Assembly (NCBI GenBank): GCA_003208875.1
Contig: QCUR01000005.1
Span: 1 to 64,000 of the forward strand
DNA: 64,000 nucleotides
Direction: 5' to 3'
Source of the DNA: Prochlorococcus sp. AG-679-M23
Lineage (GTDB): Bacteria; Cyanobacteriota; Cyanobacteriia; PCC-6307; Cyanobiaceae
Positions 562-55,400 of this stretch are shown in pieces (position 1 is the stretch's first letter; the number at the start of each line of letters is the position of its first letter). A program made the translations under genes and the position numbers. The notes under the pieces were generated by a model. The model searched no databases, was not told the DNA's origin, and worked only from the letters and a program-made list of their open reading frames with translations.

Positions 562-620
562 TACTTAGTAATACATATGTACTACTAATATAGGTTAATG
601 TTATTTAAATCGTCAAGCAT

Positions 621-1030: not shown

Positions 1031-1056
1031 AAAAAAAGCAGCCTTAAAGCTGCTTC
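1031..1056 (-). terminator. Intrinsic terminator downstream of tRNA-fMet
   Basis: AAGCAGC-cttaaa-GCTGCTT hairpin followed by a T-run on the minus strand. Confidence 0.8.
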
Positions 1057-1060
1057 TAAT

Positions 1061-1137
<77 letters not shown>

Positions 1138-1181
1138 ATACATACATAGCATACATCTGAACGGGTTCTTTTTTGTGTTTT

Positions 1182-2147: not shown

Positions 2148-2148
2148 T

Positions 2149-2646: not shown

Positions 2647-2649
2647 TAT

Positions 2650-3625: not shown

Positions 3626-3733
3626 AAATTATGTTTTATTATCAATACTATAGAAACAAATGTTGCTTTTCAAGTAACTTGATTAACAACTGATGATTTG
3701 TAAGTAGCATTAAATAAATGAATTTTTCTAATT

Positions 3734-6700: not shown

Positions 6701-7033
6701 GAACTAATAGTTTTAGGTTTTAAATTAGTCGCGACTAAGGGTACTGCTAAATATTTATTTAATTTAGGAATTGAAGTTGATGAAGTTTTAAAGGTTCATG
6801 AAGGAAGGCCTAACATTGAAGATTCAATTCGTTCTGGTCTTATCCAATTAGTTATTAATACTCCAATTGGATCTCAGGCTCTCCATGATGATGCTTATCT
6901 TAGAAGAGCATCCTTAGAATATAATATTCCTACTTTCACTACTATTCCTGGAGCAAAAGCAGCTTTGCAGGCAATTAAATCATTACGGCTAAATAAAATT
7001 GATACTTTATCACTTCAGGAGATTCATAACTAA
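3734..7033 (+). CDS. carB: Carbamoyl-phosphate synthase large subunit
   Basis: [17 protein letters not shown], duplicated ATP-grasp domains, C-terminal MGS domain. Confidence 0.99.
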
Positions 7034-7039
7034 TAGAAT

Positions 7040-7259
7040 CTATTCATAATTTTTAAGATTCTCTCTTAATTGGTTTTTGAGGGAGTTTCTACCAATGGAT
7101 AACAATTTAAATGTGTCTTCATGAATTTTTAGCTGAGTTTCAGCTATTTGTAATCCTTTAATTAGTTCTTTTGTTTAACTAGTTAAAACATTAATATTAT
7201 ATTTCCCCCTCCTGAAAAGTAAGGACTCGATTTTTATTTTCAATGTTTTTTTCAGTAAT
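7040..7259 (-). pseudogene. Degraded small coiled-coil protein gene (DUF6447-like; VLTF..KYNIN..KELIKGLQIAETQLKIHEDT)
   Basis: No ATG (ATT), frameshift in G-run near 7205-7212, in-frame TAA near 7176; 3' half still reads as a familiar picocyanobacterial protein. Confidence 0.65.
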
Positions 7260-7287
7260 GATTTTATCTTTTATTAAATAAATAAAA

Positions 7288-9030
7288 TCAAGTAACCTGT
7301 ATCAACTGTTTTTCACATAATTCTTTATAAATTCCATCTTTCTTGAACAAATCTATATGTTTCCCACTATCTACAATTTTACCTTTATCAAAAACAACTA
7401 TTTTATCTGCTCCTTGGGTAGTGGATAATCTGTGAGCGATAATTATAACTGTCCTGTTATTCATTGCTTGATTTAACCCTTTTTGAACTTCTGCTTCTGA
7501 ATCTGAATCTAATGCACTTGTAGCCTCATCTAATAAAAGTATAGATGGGTTACCTAATATCGCGCGAGCTATTGCTAATCTTTGAATCTGACCTCCTGAA
7601 AAGTTAGAGCCTCTTTCGGTTATGTTTGTTTCGTATTTACTAGGGAGTTTAAGAATAAATTCATGAGCATTTGCAATCTTGGCAGACTTAATTACATCGT
7701 CTTCACTAAAGTCCCTACCCATTTTTATTACATCAATTATTCTTCCAGAAAATAAAAAAGGTTGCTGTTGTACCAAGGCAATATTTGATCTTATATCTAT
7801 TGAGCTTATAGATCTTATGTTTTTATCATCTATATATATGTCGCCTATTTTAGGGCTTATGAATTTTAATATCAAAGAAATCATTGTGCTTTTCCCAGCT
7901 CCTGATGATCCTACAAATGCAATTACCTGTCCTTTTGAAATTTTTAAAGTGATATCTTTTAAAACTTCATTACCCTTTTTATATTCAAAACTAACATGAT
8001 TGAACTCTATCTTCCCATTTATTTTTGCTATTTTTTCTAGATTTTGCTCATCTTTTTCCATGGGTTGCATATTTATTTTTTTTAATCTTTTTAATGAAGC
8101 TTCTGCTTGCTTATATTCATTAAAGTTTGTGCTAATGTGACTAATTGGGTCTATGAGCATTAGTATTGCAGCAAAAAAACTGCTAAATTCTTCGCTATTT
8201 AAAAGACCTAGGTTAATTCTTAATGCTCCTAAACCTAATATTGCCAATATTCCAAAAGCTTCAATAAAACCTACTATTGGATGTTGGATAGCAAGTAATT
8301 TAAGTGTCTTATATTTTGCTTGTTTATTACTTCTCAATTTTGTATTGAATCTACCTTTAATCCAATTTTCTGCTGCAAATGATCTTATTGTCGAAATTCC
8401 GTTTATAGATTCTCCTATTAATCCGGCTAAATCGCTTGTTGATTCTTGACTTTTTTCAGATGCTATTAAAACTCTTTTCCCAAAATTATTTACTGATAAA
8501 ACAATTATTGGAGCTAAAATAAATGTTGATATTGTCAACGACCAGTCTAAATAAAACATATAGATAATTACTGCTAATAATTGCAACACGCATGGTAATG
8601 TATCTTGAAATGTTTTATAAATCACTTCACTGACTCTGTCCGCATCTTCGGTAAGCCTATAAGTAATATCTCCTGCAGAAATGTTGTTGATAAAATTCAT
8701 TTTTATTTTGTGAATTTTACTAAATAAACTTTGTCTCATTACTTCACTTATTTCTAATGAAGGCTTAGCAATATAAACATCTTGCCCATATTGAGCAGTT
8801 TTTTGAATTAAAAATACAAGAAGAGAATTTATTATGATATTAGTTACGGTTGATAATTCTCCGGATCCAATAGCAGGTATTAATTTTCCAGCTAAAAAAG
8901 CTAATATTGGCCAACATGCTACATAAATTATCATGCATATAAAACCTTTAATAAATCTATTAATATATGGAGTGATTGATGGAATTAATTGCAAGATATT
9001 ATTTTTAATTGCTTCTTTTACTTTATCAAT
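7288..9030 (-). CDS. ABC transporter, fused permease/ATP-binding (MsbA/MdlB-like)
   Basis: TM domain plus GSSGAGKS, FSGGQ, LLLDEATSALD; start uncertain, trimmed to avoid the divergent S4 gene. Confidence 0.9.
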   Translation of the reverse strand: MDKVKEAIKNNILQLIPSITPYINRFIKGFICMIIYVACWPILAFLAGKLIPAIGSGELSTVTNIIINSLLVFLIQKTAQYGQDVYIAKPSLEISEVMRQSLFSKIHKIKMNFINNISAGDITYRLTEDADRVSEVIYKTFQDTLPCVLQLLAVIIYMFYLDWSLTISTFILAPIIVLSVNNFGKRVLIASEKSQESTSDLAGLIGESINGISTIRSFAAENWIKGRFNTKLRSNKQAKYKTLKLLAIQHPIVGFIEAFGILAILGLGALRINLGLLNSEEFSSFFAAILMLIDPISHISTNFNEYKQAEASLKRLKKINMQPMEKDEQNLEKIAKINGKIEFNHVSFEYKKGNEVLKDITLKISKGQVIAFVGSSGAGKSTMISLILKFISPKIGDIYIDDKNIRSISSIDIRSNIALVQQQPFLFSGRIIDVIKMGRDFSEDDVIKSAKIANAHEFILKLPSKYETNITERGSNFSGGQIQRLAIARAILGNPSILLLDEATSALDSDSEAEVQKGLNQAMNNRTVIIIAHRLSTTQGADKIVVFDKGKIVDSGKHIDLFKKDGIYKELCEKQLIQVT

Positions 9031-37585: not shown

Positions 37586-38170
37586 TTAAAGGGCAGAGAA
37601 ATACTCTTTACTTCCTTTTGGATCTTCTAGCATCGTTTTCTCTCCTGGGGTCCAATTCGCAGGGCAGACTTCATCTGGATTGGCTGCTACATATTGATAA
37701 CCTTGAAGTATTCTCAGTGTTTCATCTACATTTCTTCCTACAGGAGCTTTATTCACTGTTGTGTGCATTACAATTCCTTCTGGATTAATAAGAAATAAAC
37801 CTCTATCTGCTTCACCATCATCATTAAGTACGTTGTAAGCTTGGCAAATTTCTCTTTTCAAATCAGATACCAAAGGATAGTTAATATCACCGATCCCTCC
37901 TTCATTTCTAGGTGTTTGTATCCAAGCTAAGTGACAGTGTTTGCTATCAACAGATACCCCAAGAACTTCAGTGTTTAAGTCTGAGAATTTATTAAATTCA
38001 TCACTGAATGCGGTAATTTCTGTTGGACAAACAAAAGTAAAGTCTAATGGATAGAAAAACAAAACAACCCATTTTCCTTTGTAACTTGAAAGGGTAATGT
38101 CTTTAAATTCTTGATCATAAACTGCCGTTGCAGTGAAATCTGGTGCTTCTTGACCAACTCTTAAACTCAT
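37586..38170 (-). CDS. 2-Cys peroxiredoxin (AhpC/Tsa)
   Basis: [20 protein letters not shown]. Confidence 0.97.
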
Positions 38171-38275
38171 GAAATTCTATTCCTTTTTTTGAAAAAAATT
38201 AAGGCCTTAGTACACCTTAAATTAATTATAATTTTAACGTTTATAATATAGCAAGTAAATCTCTAATATGAATTC

Positions 38276-38404
38276 ATGAAATGGCATCATTCCTTAACAA
38301 GGAAGTTTACAATAATGAACTATTCTAAATTAATTAAAAATCTAAAAAGAGAATTGATCAAATATCCCATTAATAGAAATGTTGATAAGAAGAGTAATCA
38401 ATAA
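38276..38404 (+). CDS. 42-aa hypothetical microprotein (MKWHHSLTRKF...)
   Basis: Manual translation. Confidence 0.45.
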   Translation: MKWHHSLTRKFTIMNYSKLIKNLKRELIKYPINRNVDKKSNQ

Positions 38405-38492
38405 TTAAATTTTTTCTCTATAAAAACATTAACAGATACAAATAACATAATTAAAGCTATTTTAATTAAACTTCTTAGATATTTTTAAAAGT

Positions 38493-38651
38493 ATGACAAA
38501 TTACATAGATAGGCTTAAAGCAAAACTCAAAATTAAAAAATTTGATTCTGACCAACCATTAAATGCCTGGTTATTTGTCTTGATATTAAATATTGTAGGT
38601 TTTGCCGGTTACTTTTATTTAAAAATAAATGATATTCACTTAGGAGACTGA
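38493..38651 (+). CDS. 52-aa single-TM microprotein (MTNYIDRLKAK...)
   Basis: Manual translation; hydrophobic WLFVLILNIVGFAGYFYL. Confidence 0.55.
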   Translation: MTNYIDRLKAKLKIKKFDSDQPLNAWLFVLILNIVGFAGYFYLKINDIHLGD

Positions 38652-38656
38652 CTTCT

Positions 38657-38875
38657 TTATCTAATCTCTTTTTTTATTGATCTACAAAAATTTTTATATC
38701 TATCGATTCTTGTTAAGTCAGGTAAAGTCCAAATTAATTCTTTATCGAATAATGGATCATTCCATTCCTTAAATTCCTCTCTAATTGAATCACTATTTAA
38801 TTTGGAAAGTTTTTTTGTCCTTTTCTTTAAATCTTTCTTAATTACGCTAATGTTTGCATTTATATATTCTCTCAT
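38657..38875 (-). CDS. 72-aa hypothetical protein
   Basis: ORF track; EEFKEW motif. Confidence 0.55.
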   Translation of the reverse strand: MREYINANISVIKKDLKKRTKKLSKLNSDSIREEFKEWNDPLFDKELIWTLPDLTRIDRYKNFCRSIKKEIR

Positions 38876-38937
38876 AATAAATATATGGCTTTTTTAAATT
38901 TAACATTAAATAGGTCACTTAATGTTATCAGTAACTA

Positions 38938-39108
38938 TTAAACGTTCTGAACTGCTTGAAATAATCCGAATGAATATCCCCCTATTAGAATCCAACCTAA
39001 AACGCTTGATATTATAGTTGACCTTCTATTATGTCTTCGTAATGCATTTTCAATCATTTCGTTAACTTCATCTCTGCTTATGGAATCAGAATTTAAATTT
39101 TTATTCAT
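38938..39108 (-). CDS. 56-aa TM microprotein (EMIENALRRHNRRSTIISSVLGW...)
   Basis: Manual translation; resembles the MID.A.R.HNR family seen in picocyanobacteria and cyanophages (from memory). Confidence 0.65.
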   Translation of the reverse strand: MNKNLNSDSISRDEVNEMIENALRRHNRRSTIISSVLGWILIGGYSFGLFQAVQNV

Positions 39109-39343
39109 TAAATTTTTTTATTTTTATTATAAGAGAAATAAATATGCAGTGAGTTTAACCCTTTGATTTATGTTTTAAATATTAGCTAATGAACTTTGTT
39201 TTCGATATCTCTAAAACTAGTAATGGATGTATTTGTATTCATTTAATTCATTATTTCATTGACGATTTAATTGCAAATTTTCATACCCGTAAAAAATAAC
39301 TAAAATAAAGTTTTAATGGTTTTATTAAATTAGGTACCAAAAT

Positions 39344-39511
39344 ATGAATGTTAATGATGCATCTGTTCTTGAAATGATAAACAGACTTATTGCTACCGAT
39401 AGATTAAATAAAAACCAAATTCTCCAATTAGTGAACCTTGCATCAATTTCTAATAATATTAATGAATTAGAAGAAAATATTAAATGGGAAACTTTAAAAT
39501 CTAAATATTAA
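39344..39511 (+). CDS. 55-aa hypothetical microprotein (MNVNDASVLEMINRLIA...)
   Basis: Manual translation. Confidence 0.55.
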   Translation: MNVNDASVLEMINRLIATDRLNKNQILQLVNLASISNNINELEENIKWETLKSKY

Positions 39512-39579
39512 AAAATTATAAATAATTATATAGTTAGTTCTCATAATAAATACCATTTAACTATTAGCAAAATTTGAAG

Positions 39580-39735
39580 ATGAATTCTAAAAATATACAA
39601 AATAAAATATCTCTGAATGAATCTCTGGACGTATTGAAGGATTTAAATTCTTGTGAAGTAAGCAAAGCTAGCACTGAAATAATGCTTGAACGATTTTGTA
39701 ATGGTAAAGAAATTGATTTTCCTTTTTCTAATTAA
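39580..39735 (+). CDS. 51-aa hypothetical microprotein (MNSKNIQNK...)
   Basis: Manual translation. Confidence 0.45.
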   Translation: MNSKNIQNKISLNESLDVLKDLNSCEVSKASTEIMLERFCNGKEIDFPFSN

Positions 39736-39894
39736 TTAGGATTTTTTAGTAGTCAAGATTTCATTCGGAGCTATTTGAAAATAAGTTTGCTTGTCACTGT
39801 CTTTAACTTTATTAATAATAAAAACTGTTGAAATCACAAAAATTAGAATTATCATTAGGTCTCCTACAGTTAATCCTCTCTCCTTTAAATTCAT
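39736..39894 (-). CDS. 52-aa microprotein with prepilin-like N-terminus (MNLKERG|LTVGDLMIILIFV...)
   Basis: Manual translation. Confidence 0.6.
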   Translation of the reverse strand: MNLKERGLTVGDLMIILIFVISTVFIINKVKDSDKQTYFQIAPNEILTTKKS

Positions 39895-40129
39895 AACATT
39901 TGTTTTAATTATTTTTATTATAACTGAGTTGTTTATCTAATTTACTTGAATTATCGATAGTTTACTTAATATAAATAATCTATATAAGATGTACAAAAAA
40001 TATAACTTTTTACTGATTAATATTTAACCTAGCACGAACTTTAAATAACATAGCGATGATAGTTAATTTCTAAATAAGACTCCAGGAACAATTCGTGATT
40101 TAAAAATTTGAATTTTGTTTAAATACCTT

Positions 40130-40282
40130 TTAAAAGCTTTCTTTAAGAATATTTAATAACTTTGTCCTTTTAACATAGTTGTCTTTTTCCCATAAATTTG
40201 TTACCTCATCATTATTAATTGGTTTTGATTCATAAGCAAAATACCATAGTATTAATCCAATTGGAATTATTAATATTTGCAT
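40130..40282 (-). CDS. 50-aa microprotein with N-terminal TM (MQILIIPIGLILWYFAYESKP...)
   Basis: Manual translation; divergent from 40355 gene. Confidence 0.55.
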   Translation of the reverse strand: MQILIIPIGLILWYFAYESKPINNDEVTNLWEKDNYVKRTKLLNILKESF

Positions 40283-40308
40283 TTAATTTATGTTGACTTA
40301 GGTTTAAT

Positions 40309-40343
40309 ATAGTGCAACACTTATAATATGCAAGTGTTACAAT
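40309..40343. promoter_or_regulatory. Two AGTGYNACAMT boxes flanking a TATAAT; putative operator
   Basis: AGTGCAACACT (40311) and AGTGTTACAAT (40333), 22 bp apart; a third copy at 40722. Confidence 0.5.
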
Positions 40344-40354
40344 AAAACTTTTAT

Positions 40355-40720
40355 ATGCCCACGCAAAGAAGAAGAATTGGGTTTTTACCAAGATCGGAAG
40401 TTCAGAATATAATAGACAAAATTTGTAATATTAATAAATTAAGTCAATCAAAAGTAACTGGGATATTGGTTGAAGAAGCACTTAGGTCTAGAGGAGTATT
40501 AAATACCTCTATTAAAGAGTTATCATACGAATTTTGTAGTAATAAAGGTGAAGCATTATTAATTCCTAATAAAACACTTAATAGTGAAATACGAAATGTT
40601 GAAAATAAAATTAATTTAGATGATGATTCTATAAATGATGAAGTTCAAATGATTAACGACTATATTGAATTTAAGGTTTTTAAAAATATAATGAACAGAA
40701 ATAAAAGAAAGCTTAATTAA
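40355..40720 (+). CDS. Putative ribbon-helix-helix DNA-binding protein
   Basis: RRRIGFLP beta-strand, helix, LSQSKVTGILVEEAL second helix. Confidence 0.65.
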   Translation: MPTQRRRIGFLPRSEVQNIIDKICNINKLSQSKVTGILVEEALRSRGVLNTSIKELSYEFCSNKGEALLIPNKTLNSEIRNVENKINLDDDSINDEVQMINDYIEFKVFKNIMNRNKRKLN

Positions 40721-40978
40721 TAGTGTCACACTTTATCAGGAATACGTGAGCATTGGTTGAACATGGGACTTGAGGCCTGTGATCCCTCAACCACTGGGAA
40801 ATATATAGCTATAGCCCATAAAGAAGCAACGTTAAAAATAAATCCGTTGATTTCGAGGTATTTTATTCATTGGATGATTGACAGTCGATCTAAAATAATA
40901 AGTAATTATTATCTTTTTAATGGATAAAAGATTTATAGCGGAAAAATTAATGACTCTTCTCATTTCATTAATTTGCTA

Positions 40979-41095
40979 ATGAATATTTCTCCCCACTTAT
41001 TAATAGATGTTGGAATACTAAGTACTGCATTGACTATAACTCTGGTATTGAGAGCTAAAGGTAATGCAGCAAGAAAAGAGCGAGAAACCAAATGA
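40979..41095 (+). CDS. 38-aa TM microprotein (MNISPHLLIDVGILSTALTITLVLR...)
   Basis: Manual translation; ATGA overlap with next ORF. Confidence 0.55.
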   Translation: MNISPHLLIDVGILSTALTITLVLRAKGNAARKERETK

Positions 41096-41232
41096 TTACT
41101 AAAAAAGAGGAAGCAGAATACGAAAAACCTAAATTATTTAGTTTTTGGAATTTTCTAATCTATGGAAGTTTTTGTGCTATTGGTGTTTACTTAGTTTATT
41201 TATATTTGGCTTATATCTTTATAAATAAATAA
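41092..41232 (+). CDS. 46-aa TM microprotein (MITKKEEAEYEKPKLFSFWNFLIYG...)
   Basis: Manual translation; TAATG overlap with DUF1651 gene. Confidence 0.55.
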   Translation: MITKKEEAEYEKPKLFSFWNFLIYGSFCAIGVYLVYLYLAYIFINK

Positions 41233-41468
41233 TGGAACATTGGTTGATAAATTCCAATAGATCAGAAGTTAAGAGATTTATAAAGAACGATAAGAGTATT
41301 GATGAAGTATTCGAGTATATGTTCATTGATTCTGGAAAAATAGTTGGAGTATTAGGGAATGAACCTCCAGTAATTACTACAACAGTTTCTGTAGATATAG
41401 ATTTAGCTAGAGAAATTTATGAAAGATTACTTTCTCAAGGTTGGCGTAAAACAAAAGTAGTTTGGTAA
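41232..41468 (+). CDS. DUF1651 family protein
   Basis: WLIN..RSEVKRF...MFIDSG...PP...AREIYERLLSQGWRKT..VW. Confidence 0.85.
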   Translation: MEHWLINSNRSEVKRFIKNDKSIDEVFEYMFIDSGKIVGVLGNEPPVITTTVSVDIDLAREIYERLLSQGWRKTKVVW

Positions 41469-41573
41469 TAAATAATAATTTACCTCATTTAATAATTGTT
41501 TCTTAAAGTAGGAGTTTTTAGACTTGTGAATTGAATTTTGTACGGGTTTAGGAACGACAATGTTCGGGAGTTG

Positions 41574-41615
41574 GTACGTATAAATACTTAGTGAATAATT
41601 AAGACTTTCTAGAAT
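41574..41615 (+). promoter_or_regulatory. NtcA-activated promoter
   Basis: GTA-CGTATAAA-TAC then exactly 22 nt then TAGAAT, matching GTA-N8-TAC-N22-TAN3T. Confidence 0.65.
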
Positions 41616-41686
41616 AATTGCATGGTTGTCATGAGAATGCCGCGGAAGCTGCAGAAATCAACCATACTTTTTACATAAATAATAAT

Positions 41687-41836
41687 ATGACAGACCCAAT
41701 TCTCTATCTTTCAATGATTTTAGGACTTACTGGAGTGTACGTTCTAATATCATCTTTTGGCGATGATGACGATGATAGTAATGATGATGGTGAAAGATAT
41801 ATCTACAACCTTGAATACGTAAAAGTAGGTAGGTAG
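41687..41836 (+). CDS. 49-aa single-TM microprotein with acidic tail (MTDPILYLSMILGL...GDDDDDSNDDG)
   Basis: ATG at 41687 preferred over upstream TTG, which lies at the predicted promoter/TSS. Confidence 0.65.
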   Translation: MTDPILYLSMILGLTGVYVLISSFGDDDDDSNDDGERYIYNLEYVKVGR

Positions 41837-41976
41837 ATTGTATTGATTTATGATTGATACATTAATGAAGGTAAAACTTCTCGATCATTAAGCTTACATA
41901 AAAAGCAATAAAAAGTTAGTGGTATCTAGAATTTCTGCTCTCACGGCTAGAAAGACCTAGTGTTAGTATTAAGAAA

Positions 41977-42033
41977 CGTTCATCCTAGCTATATCTGGAC
42001 GCATGACATGGAAATAGGGAACGGGATTTCCAT
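41977..42033 (+). ncRNA. Glutamine-II (Downstream-peptide) riboswitch
   Basis: CGTTCATCC-loop-GGACGCA...ATGGAAAT-AGGGAACGGG-ATTTCCAT; CGTTC/GAACG and ATGGAAAT/ATTTCCAT pseudoknot pairings; extended -10 TGtTAGTAT upstream. Confidence 0.85.
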
Positions 42034-42047
42034 TAACTGCAAAGGTC

Positions 42048-42212
42048 ATGAATAACCTCATACATATTAGAGAAAAAATCAAAAGAGCTGATAGGCTTAA
42101 TAAAGCCCAGCTTCTTGCTACAAAAAACGGAGAGATTAATCATTATAATCCTTCTATTTTTGAGCAAAGACAAAAGCAAGTTCTTAAAGATATGGAAGCA
42201 TTAAATTCTTAA
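42048..42212 (+). CDS. 54-aa peptide downstream of glutamine riboswitch (MNNLIHIREKIKRADRLNKAQLLATK...)
   Basis: Manual translation; directly after riboswitch and before terminator. Confidence 0.8.
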   Translation: MNNLIHIREKIKRADRLNKAQLLATKNGEINHYNPSIFEQRQKQVLKDMEALNS

Positions 42213-42239
42213 CTTGAATTTATTACTTATATTCGAATG

Positions 42240-42265
42240 AAAGGGGTTTTATAACCCCTTTTTTA
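42240..42265 (+). terminator. Intrinsic terminator
   Basis: AAAGGGGTT-TTAT-AACCCCTTT followed by T-run. Confidence 0.85.
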
Positions 42266-42399
42266 TTAGGAAAGTTACTTGATATGAAAGCAAATACTTG
42301 CAAGGCTTTTCTTATTAAATTAATTTTAGAAAATTTAAAATACACTAGAGAATAACCTCAAGATTGCTATCCTTATTTGAAGATGGCAATTAAGTACTA

Positions 42400-42549
42400 A
42401 TGAAGGAATTACAAGAAAACACTATTGATCAAATAAGAACTCTTCTGAGGTATTTGATTGAAACAGATCTATTAAAAAATAAAGATATTCTTATGTGTTT
42501 AGATGTAATAGCGAGAGAGTATGGCGGAGAAGTCGTAGATAAAAATTAA
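42400..42549 (+). CDS. 49-aa hypothetical microprotein (MKELQENTIDQIRTLL...)
   Basis: Manual translation. Confidence 0.5.
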   Translation: MKELQENTIDQIRTLLRYLIETDLLKNKDILMCLDVIAREYGGEVVDKN

Positions 42550-42800
42550 ATATTAATATCCAATTTTATTTTTTGGATCAGTTATGAAAATTATAAGATT
42601 AAGAACTAGATTGGCAGGAAAATTAAGTGGCTTTAGAAGAAGTAAAACCATTCCCTGAGTTACATTAAAATCCATACCTTTTTTGGTCAAATTTGTATAA
42701 TCCCCAAGACCTTAGATTATATCTAGCTGTTCTTTTCAAAACTATAGATTTAGATTATGTTTGTATTACATAGTGCAATAAAGTATTAATTATGTTCGAT

Positions 42801-42872
42801 GCCGATATAGCTCACCGGTAGAGCAACTGTCTCGTAAACAGTAGGTCATCGGTTCAATTCCGATTATCGGCA
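42801..42872 (+). tRNA. tRNA-Thr (CGT)
   Basis: GCCGATA acceptor stem, ACTGT-CTCGTAA-ACAGT anticodon arm, GGTTCAATTCC T-arm. Confidence 0.96.
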
Positions 42873-43114
42873 TTTAAATTTCAGGTATTAGTAGTAGTTG
42901 AATTTCAATATAAAATAATATTCAATTAGCTCTTTTTTTATGTATGGTTAATTTTTAAAAGCTGAATCTTTTACCAGCATTACGAAAAATAAAATGATCC
43001 CTAAACGTGAGCGCTCTAATTACACTTGGTGATAATTAAACTCATTTCATTATAGGAACTTATGTTGTTAAAATTGACATCTTTTGGAGTAATGTAAGTG
43101 GGATTAAAAATGTT

Positions 43115-43363
43115 TTAAAAATAGCTTTTAAATATACTGGTCTTCATCCATCCGTCCTCCAATAACTGCTTATATTCCTTTCTTGCATCTTCAATGGATT
43201 CTACTCTTGAACCTTTGATAACTGGTTTACTTGATCTTTTATATACACAAGCATATTTAATCTCCATTGCATTAATAGTTGGAGAAGGTTTACTAACATC
43301 CTCAAATGGCTTAAATATTTTTATTCGATCTCTTCTCTTGTTTATTAAAGTAAATTCTTCCAT
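43115..43363 (-). CDS. DUF1651-like protein
   Basis: TLINKRRDRIKIF...KPVI...ARKEYKQLLEDGWMKT. Confidence 0.75.
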   Translation of the reverse strand: MEEFTLINKRRDRIKIFKPFEDVSKPSPTINAMEIKYACVYKRSSKPVIKGSRVESIEDARKEYKQLLEDGWMKTSIFKSYF

Positions 43364-43605
43364 ATATAGTTTACGGCAACTAGCCCTCTTTATTTTTATA
43401 GCGATAGATTTTTAATGTGGCAACTCAGGTCTAGGATAACAATCCTAAGATCATCTTAAAAATGTTTCTATCTCGTTCTATTGCAATCAGTGAGTTCTTT
43501 TTAATCCTCAATCCGTACAATTTAGTTCCTCTTACCGCACACATAAAACTCAAGTTAAACTAACCAAATTGTTTAGAACTTAAATATTAATACAAAGTAA
43601 GTACA

Positions 43606-43791
43606 ATGAAATTAAAATCAACATTAAGTATTCAAGACAAGAATTTTAGAGATCTTGATAATTCGGTTGAATATTTAACTCTCGCTGACCTAATGAAAGA
43701 GCAAGGAGTATCAACAGATTTAGCTGATTATTGGGATAAGGAATGTGAATTGAATCCATCCGATCCTCATTGCTTAGAATATGACGATTAG
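43606..43791 (+). CDS. CP12 C-terminal-domain protein
   Basis: C-terminus YWDKECELNPSDPHCLEYDD (C-x8-C-xxYDD). Confidence 0.75.
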   Translation: MKLKSTLSIQDKNFRDLDNSVEYLTLADLMKEQGVSTDLADYWDKECELNPSDPHCLEYDD

Positions 43792-43908
43792 CTCAACAAG
43801 GATCTATCACTAAACTCATTTCATATCAATCTATTTAGTATTTTCTACTTATTGAAACTAATAAATTTTCTAACTAGACTTTTAAAAACTATAAATTTGG
43901 GGAAATTT

Positions 43909-44052
43909 ATGAGTGGAGATTATGAGACATTAGAAATCAATCAACCTAAGATTTCTTATTTAAAAAAAAGATCAGAAGACAATACTTTATGGCTAGATGA
44001 AATGATTGATAAGATTGAAGATATGAAGAACAACATATTTGATGCTGCTTAG
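43909..44052 (+). CDS. 47-aa hypothetical microprotein (MSGDYETLEINQPKISY...)
   Basis: ATG at 43909 with GGGGA upstream, within the ORF-track frame. Confidence 0.55.
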   Translation: MSGDYETLEINQPKISYLKKRSEDNTLWLDEMIDKIEDMKNNIFDAA

Positions 44053-44166
44053 TATATGAAAATAAAGGTTAATCCCTTTTCATATTTTTTATTTTTCTTC
44101 AAATGAATGTAAGAAAAAATCTAAGATAAAAACTTTTAATATCAAAAAATTCAAAAAAAAAAAAAA

Positions 44167-44240
44167 TGTCAATGGGCGGATTTGAACCGCCGACCGCGAC
44201 GATATGAATGTCGTGCTCTAACCAACTGAGCTACATTGAC
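44167..44240 (-). tRNA. tRNA-Met (CAT), probably elongator
   Basis: GTCAATGTAGCTCAGTTGGTTAGAGCACGACATTCATATCGTCG...GGTTCAAATCCGCCCATTGACA; paired 1:72. Confidence 0.92.
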
Positions 44241-44755
44241 GTGTTTTATATCTTACTATTTTATTGCATTATTGAGCAATTATTTAATTAATTTCGAATG
44301 AATCAAAATGTATATTTTTCAATTATTTTTTTATCCATCTTTATTATTTCTTTAAATATACATCCATATTATTTCTAATATTATTCGTTGCTTTTACATT
44401 TTTAGATGTTTAGATTCTTTGTCTGAGGCTTATCCTATAGCCCATTTATAACATAAATAAAATACTGTTATCTGGGTAGCATCTTCGTATTCCCTCAGTT
44501 TATCTCAGGTTCAGAAGCAATCTAATCTTGAATATGTCTCTATTCCTTTGATTTAATAATCCACCAATTGTTGTCTTATTTCCGCAAATTCCTAAATAAG
44601 TATTTCTGTCATAAATATTCCATTGAATTGTATTATTTAATTTGCACATTATTGTTGGCTTAGATTTCTCAGGTAATAATTTATGATAATGTTGAAATTT
44701 TATTAATAAATGATATTTGTCTATCCAACCTGAAAAGTTCAATCATGAGTTTACC

Positions 44756-45238
44756 TTAATTAGCAATTTTAGAATTTATCTGTTTATAAGCTTCATATAT
44801 AGCTATTCCACATGCTACTGATAAATTTAAACTCCTTACACCTTTGGGATCATTGTTCGATAACTCTACCTTGGGCATAAATATTGATATTAATGAATTA
44901 CTAGCACTAATAATATTATTAGGTAATCCAGTATCTTCCCTACCAAATAATAATATATCGTCTTCTTGAAATCTAAAGTCTTTCAAGTAAACCCCATTTT
45001 TTTTGCTAAAGGCAATAATTCTGTTATTTTTTTTTGAATTTTTAAAGTTGTTAAAGTTAGGATAATTTTTTAATTTCACTAACGGCCAATAATCTAGACC
45101 AGCTCTTTTTAAATATTTATCTTCTAATTTAAAACCTAAAGGCTCGATTAAATTTAATGTAATATCAAAAGCAGCACAAGTTCTGGCTATACTCCCTGTA
45201 TTTTGAGGAATCCTTGGTTCAAAAAGTGAAATTTCCAC
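44756..45238 (-). CDS. trmL: tRNA (cytidine/uridine-2'-O)-methyltransferase, SPOUT family
   Basis: PRIPQNTG, LKRAGLDYW, FGREDTGL, RSLNLS. Confidence 0.93.
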   Translation of the reverse strand: MEISLFEPRIPQNTGSIARTCAAFDITLNLIEPLGFKLEDKYLKRAGLDYWPLVKLKNYPNFNNFKNSKKNNRIIAFSKKNGVYLKDFRFQEDDILLFGREDTGLPNNIISASNSLISIFMPKVELSNNDPKGVRSLNLSVACGIAIYEAYKQINSKIAN

Positions 45239-50813: not shown

Positions 50814-53279
50814 ATGAAGGTCTCTCAGAATTGGTTGAAATCCCTTGTAGAAATAAATACTACAGCAGACGATTTATCTGAAAAACTATCAATAGGTGGT
50901 TTCGAAGTTGAGTCACTTGTTGATTGTTCAGAAAATGTAAAAGGTATAGTTCTTGGAAAGGTTTTGTCGGTAGTCAAGCATGAGAATTCAGATAAGTTAT
51001 CTATATGCATTGTTGACATTGGAAGGTCTAATACTTTACAGATAGTTTGTGGAGCAAAAAATGTAAAGCAAAATATATATGTTTATGTAGCTACTGTTGG
51101 TACGCATTTAAGTGCTATAAATTTAACTATTAAAAAAAGTGAAATAAGAGGTGTTTCTAGTGAAGGAATGATTTGTTCGCTTGAAGAATTAGGAATAGAA
51201 GATACAAGTGAAGGAATCGCCATTATTGATGAGGATTTAGCCTTAAATCATAAATTAGGGACATCAGGAGCTGAAATACTTAATCTAAACGACTATATCT
51301 ACGATTTAGCAATTACTGCAAATAGACCTGATGGTATGTCTGTTGTTGGCATCGCAAGAGAAATATCTGCTCTTTTGGAAACTAAGTTAAACTTTCCAGA
51401 TTTAAAAACTAAGTATAAAACAAATGTTTATAGAGATTTTAATCTTTGCCCTGAGGCAATCACAAAAAATTGTCTTTATTCCATTAGCAATATTGAGTCC
51501 GTCAATGGGAAGCAATTATCTCCGGGATGGCTCAAAGATCGTTTATATAAATCAGGAATTAAATCTATCAATCTTTTGGTAGACATAACTAACTACATTC
51601 TTTTAGAACAAGGACAACCATTACATGCTTTTGATAAAGACAAATTATCTAAATTAATCGGCCGAAAGGTTTCATATAACGATTTCTCGGTTAGAAAGGC
51701 ATATAATAATGAAAATCTTTTGTGTCTGAATGGTGAGAATTATAAATTAAATGAAAATATAACTATCATCGCTTGTGACAACAAACCAGTCGCTATAGCG
51801 GGTGTAATTGGTGGTTTGGAAACAGCTGTAAATGAGGACACTTCTTCAATATATCTTGAAGGAGCAGTTTTTAATCCTGTCACGATAAGAAAGTCATCAA
51901 AAGAAATTGGAATTAGAACGGAATCTAGTAGTAGATATGAAAAAGGAATTTCTTATAAAAATACATTAGATTCAGTATCCCGTGCTATTAACATTTTAGA
52001 AGAATACTTTAATATTTTAAATCCAATAATCAATACTTCTAAAGAATTGGATTCCACAAAAATACTAATACCGTTGAGAAGAGAGAGAATTAATAAAATA
52101 CTTGGTCCAATTGTAATTAGAAATGAGAATTTCGATACTAATAGTAAATTAGAAAAAAGGTATTTATCAGATAATGAAATTTCGGAAAAATTAAAGCTAA
52201 TAGGTTGTACCTTAAACATAAAAGAATATGGATGGGATGTAGAAATTATTCCCAACAGGTCTCAAGATTTATTACGAGAAATTGATTTAATAGAGGAAAT
52301 TGCAAGATTAATTGGTTATGACATGTTTGATTTGAATTTACCAAATCCGATAAAACCAGGAAAGCTTTCTTCATCTCAAATAGCATTAAGGAAGTTAAAA
52401 ACGGGATTAATAGTAAGTGGATTTAACGAAGTATTGTCTTATTCTCTTGTTCCAGAAAGTAAGAATAATTTAATCAAGATTTCAAATCCTTTACTCTTGG
52501 AAACAAGTTGTTTAAGAGATAATATTTGGCAAGAACATATTAAAATATGTAATCAAAATATTAAGTCAGGACATGATTATTGTTGGATATTTGAAGTTGG
52601 AAATATTTTCAGTAAAAAACCTGATTTTTCACAAGAAGAAATCCTAAATGGAGCTCTCTATGGAAAAAATAAATTTGAACAATGGTTAGATTCAAATAAA
52701 GATAGTAATTTGACCTATTACGAGGCAAGAGGAAAGTTAAAGGAAGCATTATCAATATTAAATTTAAAAATAGAAGATAGATCAACAGATACGATAGATT
52801 TTCTTCATCCAGGCAGATCCTCTAAATTATTTACCGAAGGTAACGAAGTCGGATATTTTGGTGAGATTCATCCAAATTTAATATCTAACAAAATAGCATT
52901 AAAAAAACTGTATTTATTTAGTTTAAACATAAATAATATCTTAAAAGCCAGCACTAGACAAAATAAATGGATAACAGTTTATAAACAATTCCCAACAGTT
53001 CCCAAAATGGAACGTGATATTAATTTTATATTCAATAAAAAATACTTAGTAAGTGAGATAATTTCACAAATAAAAAAATCTGGTAAAAAATTATTAGAAG
53101 ATGTTAATTTAATAGATGTTTATGATGATGATAGTTTTGGTAAAGAATTAATAAGCTACACATTTAGATTATCTTATAGAGATTCTGAAAAAACATTATT
53201 AGATTCTGACATTGCATTTCTTCACGATAGTATTGTTGAAAATATTGAAAAAAAATTCTCCACTAAATTAAGAGATTAA
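50814..53279 (+). CDS. pheT: Phenylalanyl-tRNA synthetase beta subunit
   Basis: tRNA-binding OB fold, TANRPD, REIDLIEEIAR, FDX-ACB C-terminus. Confidence 0.98.
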   Translation: MKVSQNWLKSLVEINTTADDLSEKLSIGGFEVESLVDCSENVKGIVLGKVLSVVKHENSDKLSICIVDIGRSNTLQIVCGAKNVKQNIYVYVATVGTHLSAINLTIKKSEIRGVSSEGMICSLEELGIEDTSEGIAIIDEDLALNHKLGTSGAEILNLNDYIYDLAITANRPDGMSVVGIAREISALLETKLNFPDLKTKYKTNVYRDFNLCPEAITKNCLYSISNIESVNGKQLSPGWLKDRLYKSGIKSINLLVDITNYILLEQGQPLHAFDKDKLSKLIGRKVSYNDFSVRKAYNNENLLCLNGENYKLNENITIIACDNKPVAIAGVIGGLETAVNEDTSSIYLEGAVFNPVTIRKSSKEIGIRTESSSRYEKGISYKNTLDSVSRAINILEEYFNILNPIINTSKELDSTKILIPLRRERINKILGPIVIRNENFDTNSKLEKRYLSDNEISEKLKLIGCTLNIKEYGWDVEIIPNRSQDLLREIDLIEEIARLIGYDMFDLNLPNPIKPGKLSSSQIALRKLKTGLIVSGFNEVLSYSLVPESKNNLIKISNPLLLETSCLRDNIWQEHIKICNQNIKSGHDYCWIFEVGNIFSKKPDFSQEEILNGALYGKNKFEQWLDSNKDSNLTYYEARGKLKEALSILNLKIEDRSTDTIDFLHPGRSSKLFTEGNEVGYFGEIHPNLISNKIALKKLYLFSLNINNILKASTRQNKWITVYKQFPTVPKMERDINFIFNKKYLVSEIISQIKKSGKKLLEDVNLIDVYDDDSFGKELISYTFRLSYRDSEKTLLDSDIAFLHDSIVENIEKKFSTKLRD

Positions 53280-53290
53280 TTGTATCACTA

Positions 53291-53339
53291 TTCTCATCCT
53301 AGACTTATTAATTGTCTGTAATTAAGTCTTATATGAGAC
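53291..53339 (-). repeat. 49-bp tripartite repeat unit A (inverted relative to B and D)
   Basis: Reverse complement GTCTCATATAAGAC-TTAATTACAGACAATTAATAA-GTCTAGGATGAGAA. Confidence 0.85.
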
Positions 53340-53384
53340 GGTTAGTATTCGTGTAAATCTAAATCATCATATATAATATTAACT

Positions 53385-53633
53385 ATGATTAATATCCTCT
53401 CATTATTAATATCTTCCGTCCTTTGGGTGCAAGTTCCTCAATGGTCTGATGATTGGTCTAAATGCGCTGTAGATGTACCAGATTCATCATGCCATTGGTA
53501 CATTACAGCACCTGATAATACTTTTGGAGATGGATTTGATTGGGCAAGCGCACCGTGGTTTGATGCAAATGGCTTGAGTGATGTTCCAAGCATTGAGAGA
53601 GAAACAGCCCTCCAAAAGCTTCAGACTCAGTAG
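53385..53633 (+). CDS. Small, probably exported Trp/Asp/Cys-rich protein
   Basis: Hydrophobic N-terminus, VPQWSDDWSKCAVDVPDSSCHWY. Confidence 0.8.
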   Translation: MINILSLLISSVLWVQVPQWSDDWSKCAVDVPDSSCHWYITAPDNTFGDGFDWASAPWFDANGLSDVPSIERETALQKLQTQ

Positions 53634-53756
53634 TACTGTCTTAAAGGCAGCTCTACATCATTAAAACTCTTGTTATATTAGTGTTTTTAGCTCAATAATT
53701 GAAGATTGGACAAACAAAGGACAATAATTTATAAAATTAAACTTTATATATTGATT

Positions 53757-53805
53757 TTCTTATTTAAGATTCATTAATAGACTATTTATAAGTCTTGTAT
53801 GAGAC
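53757..53805 (+). repeat. 49-bp tripartite repeat unit B
   Basis: TTCTTATTTAAGAT-TCATTAATAGACTATTTATAA-GTCTTGTATGAGAC. Confidence 0.85.
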
Positions 53806-53876
53806 TAGTAATACTTTCTTTAAATTTTTTTCTACTCTCATACGTAGGGAGGGGGTGCAAAACTGTATTTTATTAA

Positions 53877-53890
53877 TTCTTATACAAGAA
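53877..53890. repeat. Solo copy of the 14-bp palindrome
   Basis: TTCTTATACAAGAA. Confidence 0.6.
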
Positions 53891-54005
53891 AGTTAAAACT
53901 TCAATATTTTTATTTAATATTTGATATGCATTATTCACTTTTAAATACTCTGAAAAGCAAGAATCAATTTTTAAAGAATTATAAAATTAAGTTTTTATCT
54001 TTTAA

Positions 54006-54054
54006 ATCTTATATAAGACTTTTTATTAGACCTAGTTTAAGTCTCATATAAGAA
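54006..54054 (+). repeat. 49-bp tripartite repeat unit D
   Basis: ATCTTATATAAGAC-TTTTTATTAGACCTAGTTTAA-GTCTCATATAAGAA. Confidence 0.85.
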
Positions 54055-54062
54055 TAATAATA

Positions 54063-55076
54063 CTATCTTCTATACATGTTTTTAAGCAGTTGATATGCAT
54101 CATTTAATTTCCTCATCTCATCAGTAGATCCACCAGAATCTGGATGGGTTTCTAAAGCTTTAATTTTATATGCTTCTCGTATTTTATTTAATGTATGTGC
54201 TGACCCTGCGGCGGTAGATAACTTTAATAATTTTAGAGCTCCATGAACAGTCATTGTTGAATCAAGTGCTTCAAATGAATTTCCTTTATTTTTTCTTTTA
54301 AACCTACTTATAAATCTTCTTACTAATGTTGGGACCCTATTTATTAAATCAGATGTTGCAAATGGATCTTCTAATACACCTATCATTAAAATAACTAACT
54401 CTAAGGAGGGAGTTTGTTTTATCCAAAAAGGGCATAAATCCGACATTAATTTATTTGCGGCACTCCAAGTGAATGGCAACTGCTCAGTTCCATCAATATT
54501 TGGCCAAATATCTATACAAAACCAATCAATAGATGCTTCTATTACTTGTTCATTTGGAATTGATCCATATAGGTTTTTCCAATGGCTTATAATTTCAATT
54601 CGACATTTAATTAAATCATTTTCCTTAATAGTATTAATTTGAATATCATTAATTTTTTGTTTTGTCTTTTCAATGTTTATACTTCTTCTCAGATTTTTAA
54701 CTTTATTTCCAACAAAATTAGGTAGGTTGATGTTTAAGTTTGGTTTTTCAATAACCTCTTTATTATTTAAAAGAAGTTTTTCTTCGGATTCTGTACTAGT
54801 ACTCTCATCCTTATCAGATTTAATAAGGACTAAAGCACTCTTCTCATCAAAGTTAGAGTATTCATTAATATTACTCTTTTCGCTGTAATCAATTGTCTGT
54901 TGTTGACTTTTAGGTAATAATTCTTCTTCTTGAAGAATTTCGGTAAGCAACTTTTCTATTACAGGTCCTCTTGCTCTAAAACCCCATTCTTTTCGTAATT
55001 GATCAAACCTAGAAACTAACTCTTCTGGCAAATCAATTGAAATTCTTTTTGTATTTGAATTCTCAGAATTACTCAA
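54063..55076 (-). CDS. Ribbon-helix-helix plus C-terminal J-domain fusion protein
   Basis: N-terminal KRISIDLPEELVSRFDQLRKEWG.RARGPVIEKLL; C-terminal IREAYK..ALETHPDSGG..EMRKLNDAY. Confidence 0.85.
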   Translation of the reverse strand: MSNSENSNTKRISIDLPEELVSRFDQLRKEWGFRARGPVIEKLLTEILQEEELLPKSQQQTIDYSEKSNINEYSNFDEKSALVLIKSDKDESTSTESEEKLLLNNKEVIEKPNLNINLPNFVGNKVKNLRRSINIEKTKQKINDIQINTIKENDLIKCRIEIISHWKNLYGSIPNEQVIEASIDWFCIDIWPNIDGTEQLPFTWSAANKLMSDLCPFWIKQTPSLELVILMIGVLEDPFATSDLINRVPTLVRRFISRFKRKNKGNSFEALDSTMTVHGALKLLKLSTAAGSAHTLNKIREAYKIKALETHPDSGGSTDEMRKLNDAYQLLKNMYRR

Positions 55077-55221
55077 TTAATCATTTTTTTTTATAATAGA
55101 ACAAAAATATTAATTGTATTCATATTATGAAAGTCTAAATAAATATATTGTCTTTAAATCAAAATCTTGCTTTTTATAAGTCACGTCTCAACAAAATAAA
55201 TTTTTATAATAATGATAAAAA

Positions 55222-55398
55222 ATGTTTTACTGTAACTTTAAATCCTCAGAAGAAAAAAAGTCTTTTTATCAAAAAAAGAAATTAGAAATGCTTAATTACA
55301 TAAAGGATTCTCTTGAAAGAAAAATTGCATCAGTAAATGCTTCAATAGAGGTTCTAGAAAATCAAATATCCAGAGACAAAGTTGAAGTTAGTAGTTAA
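55222..55398 (+). CDS. 58-aa coiled-coil microprotein (MFYCNFKS...DSLERKIASVNASIEVLENQI)
   Basis: Manual translation; heptad pattern. Confidence 0.65.
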   Translation: MFYCNFKSSEEKKSFYQKKKLEMLNYIKDSLERKIASVNASIEVLENQISRDKVEVSS

Positions 55399-55400
55399 TT

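Follow-up and report, generated by a model that had tools for sequence, protein, structure and literature searches.

Why should a gene that joins a ribbon-helix-helix (RHH) fold to a J domain be followed, directly behind its stop codon, by a phased array of short oriented sites, and which process do the protein and the sites serve? The question is raised by a locus in a window of 64,000 nucleotides (the whole stretch of DNA analyzed here) from Prochlorococcus sp. AG-679-M23 (GenBank assembly GCA_003208875.1, contig QCUR01000005.1, positions 1 to 64,000 of the forward strand), in which the gene, here called RHH-J, and pheT converge on the array. The RHH-J gene, the phased arrays, and a central palindrome found with them form a real, family-wide, single-copy module, and an RHH DNA-binding and J-domain gene with its own phased array is a combination not described before; no described RHH-J fusion or array of this kind was met in the literature searched, which was covered partly by title and abstract. 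In the reading that we favor, at a probability of about 0.5 and from sequence comparisons, the module acts at the replication terminus and is not a device of local gene control; the RHH-J protein would coat the arrays and recruit DnaK.

A first-pass annotation, made from the sequence alone, had described three pairs of a 14-bp box between pheT and the RHH-J gene as 49-bp tripartite units. Re-reading the sequence reproduced the box pairs (53291/53326, 53757/53792, and 54006/54041, 35 bp start to start in every pair), the extra tetramer in each spacer (for units B and C AGAC, at positions 9-12 of the spacer; for unit A GTCT, at 10-13), and a solo box. Unit A had been called an inverted copy, and it does match a 49-bp, five-tetramer template at 19/20 as a reverse complement; its box at 53291 is weak, TTCTCATCCTAGAC departing from the 14-mer consensus at four positions. 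The array consists of the following sites:

53282 to 53348, minus strand: unit A, inverted, with its 49-bp core at 53291-53339 (19/20 to the template), an outer half-site GTAT (the reverse complement of ATAC) at 53282-53285, and an inner flank TAGTA at 53344-53348
53757 to 53814, plus strand: unit B, with its core at 53757-53805 and an ATAC half-site at 53811-53814 (18/20), kept in the window's subclade
53877 to 53890, no strand: solo 14-bp box, placed by sequence reading and alignment
54006 to 54063, plus strand: unit C, with its core at 54006-54054 and an ATAC half-site at 54060-54063 (18/20), its last base being the first base of the RHH-J stop codon on the opposite strand

The 49-bp tripartite core stands, but the true unit is larger. 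Full units span ~67 bp and hold seven GTCT/AGAC half-sites 9-13 bp apart, with the extended consensus CTCA-N3-GTCTCA..TGAGAC-N8-AGAC-N9-GTCTCA..TGAGAC-N3-TGAGAC when units are pooled. Half-sites start at -9, 0, 10, 22, 35, 45, and 54, which leaves about one helical turn between neighbors, and GGAC/GTCC are tolerated variants. The ATAC after the second box was considered as a -10 box with outward promoters and rejected; because the same position reads GAGAC in GC-rich genomes, the ATAC of the AT-rich clade is a degenerate seventh half-site. Phased tetramer boxes in mixed orientation are a site grammar typical of RHH proteins.

Clustering of the boxes by chance is excluded. At one mismatch or less, the window contains 17 strand-matches to the 12-bp core TCTYRTATRAGA, whereas shuffles of the window gave 6.1 ± 3.6 and reached 17 once in 100. 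The whole genome (G000; 1,645,990 bp in 16 contigs, ~30% GC) contains 57 core sites at this stringency, six of them inside these 760 bp, and all five of its exact core copies lie at window positions 53327-54053. A genome-wide scan with the 49-bp template at a score of at least 15/20 returned the three units (17-19/20) and one 15/20 site elsewhere, which, bar that site, confines the tripartite unit to this locus. Rfam gave no match in 53200-55400 at E values up to 1 and, for 14 loci of other genera, none that reached its gathering thresholds.

The motif and its 35-bp spacing, on which the first-pass annotation had built its proposal, are kept in orthologous regions both within the genus and across the family. 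The RHH-J gene was found in 20 of 24 same-genus genomes, the four without it being 50-81% complete, and all 21 same-genus loci (L001 being that of the window) share synteny, boxes, and spacing. Unit orientation among them is invariant, with the proximal and middle units on the plus strand and the distal one on the minus strand; unit A is present, and inverted, in 21/21. Where the window has the solo box, a sister clade has a complete unit (148-204 bp from the stop codon in L007-L021). In alignments made blind to the motif, tetramer columns were identical at 0.95 (unit C) and 0.92 (unit A) versus 0.75 for other unit columns, and the spacer between units was barely alignable between subclades.

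Across the picocyanobacterial family to which Prochlorococcus belongs, sampled here as 151 genomes at least 90% complete, the RHH-J gene is encoded in 141; it was not found in genus g21 (0/7), g26, g30, or g41, and 16 other cyanobacterial families yielded two weak J-domain matches only. The 3′ flank is also where tripartite units gather in 20 loci drawn from 18 other genera (28-69% GC). When 41 loci were taken together, 124 box-pair units fell in the 2.6-kb 3′ flanks versus five elsewhere in the same loci, and in 38/41 the proximal unit lay -6 to +45 bp away from the stop codon. The proximal unit is on the plus strand in 33/41 loci and the most distal one on the minus strand in 28/38. The strict 12-base pattern AGAC-N8-AGAC-N9-GTCT occurs at 76 places in the 151 genomes, 58 of them within 2 kb of the gene and 56 of those 58 in its 3′ flank, and the word GTCTCA is present in 20/20 3′ flanks versus 4/20 control flanks. 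One genome, G072, has an array built differently, with no units scoring at least 14/20 near the gene and with five to six direct AGAC/GGAC repeats 11-12 bp apart just past the stop codon (G072:C1:1065890-1065975). To judge by these alignments, the half-site columns are under purifying selection and their position is fixed across a family that ranges from 30 to 69% GC.

The protein encoded beside the array was analyzed with Pfam, an alignment of relatives, an AlphaFold2 (AF2) model, and profile and fold matches to the Protein Data Bank (PDB). Its parts are as follows:

54063 to 55076, minus strand: RHH-J gene, 337 aa
54921 to 55052, minus strand: RHH part, residues 9-52
Residues 53-114: disordered acidic linker in the AF2 model
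Residues 116-122: GIDLPGFV motif
54282 to 54629: helical, family-specific middle domain, residues 150-265, confident in the AF2 model
54072 to 54248, minus strand: J domain, residues 277-335, with HPD at residues 311-313 (54138-54146)

Both ends of the protein came out as the first-pass annotation had read them. Alignment A1, of 24 sequences that are as little as 35% identical to the window protein, has 47 invariant columns, and H311, P312, and D313 are kept in 24/24. The Pfam DnaJ model matched the window protein with an E value of 7.9e-6 and 26.3 bits, under the cut-off of 27.8, and PF00226 was precomputed on 114 of 120 relatives listed. A profile searched against solved chains matched Tim14 (2guz, E 1.7e-5), with T-antigen J domains among its best matches, and structural alignment by VIA-align gave Z 9.8 to Tim14. 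By sequence and fold comparison, the C terminus is a helical J domain of class C/type III with an HPD loop between helices II and III.

For the N terminus, RHH_1 scored 13.5 bits on the window protein against a cut-off of 20.5 (17 bits in a genome scan), and PF01402 was precomputed on 20 of the 120 relatives listed. NikR models matched the protein at E 0.002-0.006, and NikR chains were matched at E 0.043 in the search of solved chains. The AF2 model (mean predicted local distance difference test score, 71) has helices at residues 18-31 and 37-52 after an extended segment at 9-17. Foldseek matched this part to NikR 1q5v with a probability of 1.00 and a root-mean-square deviation of 0.9 Å over 43 residues, the deviation from NikR being 0.9-1.2 Å across fold comparisons. 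VIA-align of residues 7-56 gave Z 5.0-6.5, where a Z below 8 counts as moderate, to NikR, AmrZ, PutA, MazE, TacA, Arc, ParD, and CdbA. The predicted structure of the N terminus is an RHH fold of ~45 residues (β-α-α). A two-copy complex prediction for residues 1-58 scored 0.31 against a mark of 0.42 and counts neither way.

The middle domain, taken from the full-length model, gave no convincing fold match (Foldseek E above 0.1, VIA-align Z of 5.3 or less), and its profile found 65 matches among 1.84 billion representatives, all of the RHH-J layout or fragments of it. Look-alikes in the ESM Atlas (DnaJ-annotated clusters of ~240 aa, score 0.77) were not borne out by a HMMER profile search. At E values up to 0.1, Pfam matched the protein to DnaJ, a CtpB_N-like model, and RHH_1 only, with no Tus or RTP match. 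Members of its cluster carry the names "molecular chaperone DnaJ" or "CopG/Arc/MetJ family transcriptional regulator." To our knowledge, RHH-J would be the first case in bacteria of a protein that binds DNA sequence-specifically, has a J domain built in, and comes with a cis array of its own, so that Hsp70 would be recruited to a fixed chromosomal site.

Some genomes also contain stand-alone open reading frames (ORFs) of 64-80 aa that match residues 2-59, the RHH part, at 40-48% identity. These RHH-like matches lie at G106:C1:379316-379489, G082:C1:913174-913332, G041:C1:1526333-1526503, and G058:C1:561774-561914, and three of them contain TAA.

Genomes that lack the gene bear on whether protein and array belong together. 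In G054, a phycobilisome-protein gene adjoins the homolog of Ap4A phosphorylase, and both the RHH-J gene and the array are absent between them. In G065, a single unit (18/20) is left beside an inserted AAA_15/AAA_21 (AbiEii-like) ATPase gene of 453 aa, at the place that the RHH-J gene and array occupy in other genomes:

L085 (G065:C1:31900-37000): remnant unit at 2011-2059, ATPase gene at 2834-4195

A middle-domain profile found no match in five genomes that lack the gene. The array is inherited along with the gene, and in G054 both are missing. Given this linkage, the co-absence, and the RHH-type site grammar, the RHH-J protein probably binds the arrays.

A second element, bracketed by the arrays and overlooked in the first-pass annotation, is a 27-bp palindrome, GCGTANCTG-N9-CAGNTACGC. 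Word counting in 3′ flanks gave the consensus GCGTA[ACT]CTG-N9-CAG[GTA]TACGC. At one mismatch or less it is present in 111/151 family genomes, almost always once per genome, and among the sites listed 68/75 lie within ~2.1 kb of the gene's 3′ end. All 20 loci of other genera hold a single copy (at two mismatches or less), 238-889 bp from the stop codon and with units on both sides. None of the 10 genomes without the RHH-J gene and none of 10 genomes of the window's genus has it at one mismatch or less, and outside the family it is found in 4/112 other cyanobacteria, which is background. The arms are kept and the center is free; several lineages have changed both arms symmetrically, and the arms are conserved in sequence from 30% to 69% GC, with no T-run on either side in most loci. 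A remnant is recognizable in the window, as is a further conserved feature that had been passed over:

53633 to 53653, no strand: palindrome remnant, GTACTG-N9-CAGCTC, overlapping the stop codon of a small ORF
53707 to 53722, plus strand: TGGAC-N6-AGGAC, two direct RGAC half-sites 11 bp apart

GTACTG-N9-CAGTAC is exact in 14/21 same-genus loci, CAGTAC being the right arm of the sister clade. The TGGAC-N6-GGAC pair is kept family-wide ~50-65 nt gene-ward of the palindrome, reads TGGAC-N6-TGGAC in the loci from other genera, and has invariant TGGAC...GGAC columns in the same-genus alignment.

By analogy, the palindrome with its arrays would fit a dif-like core with accessory arms. A candidate partner is a tyrosine recombinase of 386 aa (G000:C4:163917-165074; L143:1418-2575) encoded in all family genomes but two (149/151); the two in which it was not found, G054 and G065, are also without the RHH-J locus. 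It is class-wide, at 43-48% identity, whereas the palindrome is family-specific, and its top model match is archaeal XerA, at E 1.4e-9 and a score far short of the cut-off. FtsK_SpoIIIE gave no match in G000. A preprint (10.1101/542381) raises the possibility that a cyanobacterial "Cyan" subgroup of simple tyrosine recombinases complements Xer, and the account of dif prediction in PMC3025954 gives it as having failed in all cyanobacteria examined there.

Could the sites instead be relics of mobile-element ends, or a structured 3′ untranslated region or terminator, with no dedicated function? Units A and C bound ~780 bp as inverted copies of each other, and two genomes have palindrome-like sites next to genes for an integrase and a phage-type RNA polymerase, but the fixed position and the purifying selection on half-site columns over 30-69% GC are hard to reconcile with relics. 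The array interior contains no transposase, a phage collection gave three J-domain-only matches, and a plasmid collection gave no relatives. We regard this explanation as very improbable.

The palindrome-like sites in these two genomes are recorded here in their own right. In L144 (G186:C1:1033001-1050000), palindrome-like sites at 3572 and 13026, 9.45 kb apart, flank an ORF of 529 aa with an integrase domain, a photolyase gene, and ORFs of no assigned family, and an Hsp70/ParM-like ORF lies 2 kb beyond them. The centers of the two sites differ, so they are not simple attL/attR copies, and the G186 integrase has no significant similarity to the core recombinase (E 0.18). In L145 (G073:C1:752001-768000), a palindrome-like site with one mismatch at 7808 has a glycyl-tRNA synthetase α-subunit gene on one side and ORFs of no assigned family on the other; it lies near a phage-type single-subunit RNA polymerase gene, 425 kb from the RHH-J gene of G073.

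What else lies between the converging genes matters for the choice between a terminus role and local gene control. Two features flank unit A:

50814 to 53279, plus strand: pheT (phenylalanyl-tRNA synthetase β chain), with five Pfam domains, a kept neighbor
53385 to 53633, plus strand: small ORF of 82 aa with a hydrophobic N terminus, between unit A and the palindrome remnant

The pheT gene converges on RHH-J and ends 2 bp ahead of the outermost half-site of unit A. Beyond it to the left, Pfam identified ribosomal proteins L33 and S18, an RNB domain, and class-I Met-tRNA ligase, and outward on the right side Ap4A phosphorylase, DUF2237, B12-dependent methionine synthase, and an aminotransferase of class IV; no ParA, ParM, helicase, or recombinase gene was detected by Pfam among these neighbors, which are housekeeping genes. 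The small ORF, which the first-pass annotation had also missed, is 83-95% identical in 20 same-genus loci, versus ~75% for the RHH-J protein in most, and is better conserved than either neighboring gene. With the window ORF as query it was found in the window's genus alone; it has no Pfam or NCBIfam match, and its 90% cluster, named "hypothetical protein," has 13,291 members. In two metatranscriptome studies, many contigs span 53409-53669, with contig depths of 530-8,560 versus 0-36 in the flanks, 100-700 times the neighbors, and the cover stops just past the palindrome remnant; 53670-53930 is without contig cover in 3/4 runs, a gap that, in contigs, proves nothing. These depths are a weak hint that the small ORF is highly expressed and that the palindrome remnant is its 3′ hairpin.

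The small ORF gives substance to a regulatory explanation, in which RHH-J is a repressor or activator and the units are operators for short transcripts that converge on the gene from the spacer downstream of it. In the window's genus it would act on the 82-aa ORF, and elsewhere on lineage-specific small ORFs or RNAs. The J domain would tie binding to the availability of DnaK, making a sensor of proteotoxic stress like HspR/DnaK. The palindrome would be a shared 3′ hairpin, and the terminus position would be inherited and irrelevant. Most characterized RHH proteins are repressors, and the explanation stays alive because unit A, which ends 46 bp before the start codon of the small ORF, could be its operator; a unit in L037 likewise ends ~30 bp ahead of an ORF of 86 aa. 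Yet small ORFs within the arrays are not kept between lineages, in contrast to the units, the TGGAC pair, and the palindrome. The unit that is kept best lies against the stop codon of RHH-J itself and has no gene downstream, and a template scan found no units upstream of RHH-J. The deep contigs ending past the remnant, and the A-rich sequence left of the palindrome in several loci, terminator-like for the gene's strand, would suit a 3′ hairpin, but the palindrome's arms are conserved over 30-69% GC and mostly without a T-run. The supposed -10 box is a half-site, and two to five units of seven half-sites each exceed an ordinary operator. On balance, local control appears rather unlikely, but it is the strongest rival of the reading we favor.

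The alternative that we favor, a role at the replication terminus, draws on the position of the locus in the chromosome. From the gene order of MED4, the first-pass annotation had placed pheT roughly opposite the origin, and this proved correct. With dnaN as origin marker in 26 complete genomes with exact lengths, 23 have the RHH-J gene at a distance of 0.43-0.50 of the circle, the exceptions being G086 (0.33), G072 (0.36), and G150 (0.39). In G015 (1,657,990 bp, dnaN match from base 174), the antipode at 829,169 falls between units at 828,872 and 829,574. Raw GC skew showed no inflection along contig C5 and was replaced by third-codon-position skew; the third-position G+T excess is consistent along contigs and flips near dnaN. 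In all five informative genomes, from five genera, the switch in skew, taken to mark the replication terminus, lies 0-20 kb past the array, on the array side of the gene, as follows:

G000, contig C5: switch at 37-46 kb (inverted V), array at 53.3-54.1 kb
G086: cumulative maximum at the first gene past the array, interval 803.8-824.7 kb, array at 801.8-803 kb
G150: switch at 530.5-532.2 kb, array at ~520 kb
G135: maximum-likelihood break at 1,059-1,061 kb (1.92 log-likelihood points reach 1,095 kb), array at 1,077 kb
G047: cumulative maximum at 886.3 kb, maximum-likelihood break at 902.9-906.4 kb, array at 885.0-885.6 kb

The RHH-J gene is co-oriented with its fork in all five. In two of the five the switch lies 300-400 kb from the dnaN antipode, and in G086 no switch was found across 200 kb around the antipode, where one polarity holds throughout. 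G054, which lacks the module, showed no switch within ±100 kb of the syntenic gap; six 100-kb samples of it had skews of 0.488-0.510, versus ~0.52 against 0.45-0.475 in five other genomes, and because the skew is weak in all six samples G054 says nothing on the switch.

The part of the window to which the switch maps, ~10 kb from the array (38000-45000), contains small ORFs, two tRNA genes, and a riboswitch only, and Rfam found nothing else in 36000-64000:

41974 to 42033, plus strand: glutamine-II riboswitch
42801 to 42872, plus strand: tRNA gene
44167 to 44240, minus strand: tRNA gene

A special case of a terminus role is a polar fork trap, one- or two-sided, in which coated units would stop the helicase in one orientation and the two opposed groups would each face one of the forks. 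The genes tus and rtp adjoin their own sites at the terminus (TerB and TerI-II, respectively), as RHH-J does, and the units form opposed groups, proximal plus and most distal minus in the proportions given above; moreover, the switch stays by the locus in G086 and G150 despite replichores of ~0.33/0.67 and 0.39/0.61. The switch nevertheless lies 0-20 kb past the array, not inside it, in all five genomes, which suggests that a fork moving in the direction of the gene gets past the array and speaks against a two-way trap there. No second array exists in the genome to close a wider trap, the protein has no similarity to Tus or RTP by Pfam, and the J domain is left without a role unless it serves release. 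We consider a fork trap improbable.

Published data on DNA in extracellular vesicles touch on the same region. In a re-analysis of vesicle DNA from strain MED4 (PMC10913375), "ter" was set as 826,000-832,000 of NC_005072.1 and received 92,377 of 1,368,548 and 186,179 of 2,729,515 reads in two runs, against a median of 0 reads in 200 random windows, and the highest peak is given there as lying at a "dif site" whose location was taken from the literature. In G015 coordinates, if these equal the numbering of the published replicon, that "ter" window would hold the array and the gene.

How might such a module act? Binding, its cooperativity, recruitment of DnaK, and the reaction served are what we infer from its anatomy. 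Dimers of the N-terminal RHH would read the GTCT/AGAC (RGAC) half-sites, and with a phasing of 9-13 bp as many as seven dimers in each unit would sit on a single face of the DNA. Through the linker and the middle domain, which is specific to the family, the dimers may join into a higher-order complex, and sites directly behind the gene would favor loading in cis. The J domain, through its HPD motif, would trigger ATP hydrolysis by DnaK on the spot, and DnaK would remodel or remove either the complex itself or an arriving client, for example a replisome or a recombinase synapse. The complex would sit just ahead of the meeting point of the forks, on the replichore co-directional with the gene. 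As to the terminus reaction, we rank control of recombination or processing at the palindrome first, a fork barrier second, and tethering or segregation third; in the first, control of site-specific recombination would stand in for control by FtsK, for which the scan of G000 gave no match. A more specific and rather doubtful version has picocyanobacteria end the chromosome cycle with a chaperone-coupled system peculiar to them. The palindrome would be the terminus core site (a target of the conserved cyanobacterial "simple" tyrosine recombinase or a point where fork fusion is processed) and the two opposed arrays a licensing scaffold, with DnaK, brought in by the J domain, as an ATP-driven remodeler replacing FtsK or Tus and the vesicle peak a by-product.

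Several observations weigh against a terminus role and keep our probability where it is. Ten of the 151 family genomes lack the RHH-J gene, and the conserved tyrosine recombinase is still encoded in eight of these. In the clade of the window itself the palindrome has degenerated, although the arrays there are intact. Adjacency of gene and array would suit a local operator equally well, and unit A stands in an operator-like position ahead of a conserved small gene. Placing the skew break at the array is worse by 6-16 log-likelihood units in all five genomes, under a simple binomial model that ignores over-dispersion, and the offset is consistent; in G072 the skew is too weak to place the switch. 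The displaced switches of G086 and G150 could reflect recent rearrangements after which the skew has not re-equilibrated. Housekeeping neighbors (pheT, the Ap4A phosphorylase homolog) travel with the locus, and because of this, and because symmetric inversions keep terminus-proximal genes where they are, the terminus position may simply be inherited. The published "ter" window, as the source presents it, was set a priori around the literature "dif" or the midpoint. The interpretation in the first-pass annotation held for the conservation, the RHH fold, and the terminus position, and fell short in missing the full length of the units, the palindrome, the TGGAC pair, and the small gene by unit A.

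We know of no Tus or RTP counterpart in cyanobacteria, and the locus may show how picocyanobacteria finish or separate their chromosomes. If the terminus reading is true, replication termination and the resolution and separation of sister chromosomes in cyanobacteria would gain a testable address consisting of one protein, an array, and a palindrome. The loading of Prochlorococcus vesicles with terminus DNA, so far unexplained, would become testable as well. Should RHH-J instead be a DnaK-gated repressor, its regulatory design would still be new, and it would belong to organisms that have very few transcription factors.

Among known systems, Tus-Ter of Escherichia coli and RTP-Ter of Bacillus subtilis resemble the module in that a DNA-binding protein is encoded beside sites in the terminus region, in our case its putative ones, that are composite, oriented, and in opposed orientations. 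The RHH fold is not homologous to Tus or RTP, and RHH-J carries a J domain; its sites all lie within ~1.1 kb, whereas theirs are spread over hundreds of kilobases, and the composition switch lies just outside the array; arrest would be a prediction by analogy. The palindrome recalls dif/Xer-FtsK and cer/psi (compare PMC3025954 and PMC5357621) in being a single-copy terminus site of ~27-28 bp with inverted arms and a variable center, flanked by putative accessory DNA and accompanied by a single conserved tyrosine recombinase. Its arms are unlike any canonical dif, its center measures 5-9 bp according to where the arms are taken to end, it differs from the recombinase in phylogenetic range, and a part in recombination would be a prediction from sequence.

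MatP-matS likewise pairs an RHH-containing protein with palindromes of 13-14 bp in the terminus region, but matS sites are dispersed over the whole Ter domain and the sites here form one compact array (53282-54063); RHH-J has no MatP match in Pfam, and MatP has no J domain. A J domain on a DNA-binding protein, bringing Hsp70 to DNA-bound complexes, has parallels in E. coli CbpA and polyomavirus large T antigen. CbpA, however, binds curved DNA without sequence specificity and without an RHH, T antigen is a viral initiator-helicase, and neither has a cis array behind its gene. Closest in site grammar are ParG boxes, omega heptads, MetJ metboxes, and ParR/parC, in which RHH dimers lined up in strings read boxes of 4-8 bp, direct or inverted and about one helical turn apart; the boxes here, at 9-13 bp, are more widely spaced than in these arrays, the sites are downstream rather than upstream, the locus is at the chromosomal terminus, and no ParA or ParM gene is nearby. 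In partition systems the DNA-bound protein stimulates a partner ATPase, and here that partner would be DnaK, engaged through the J domain.

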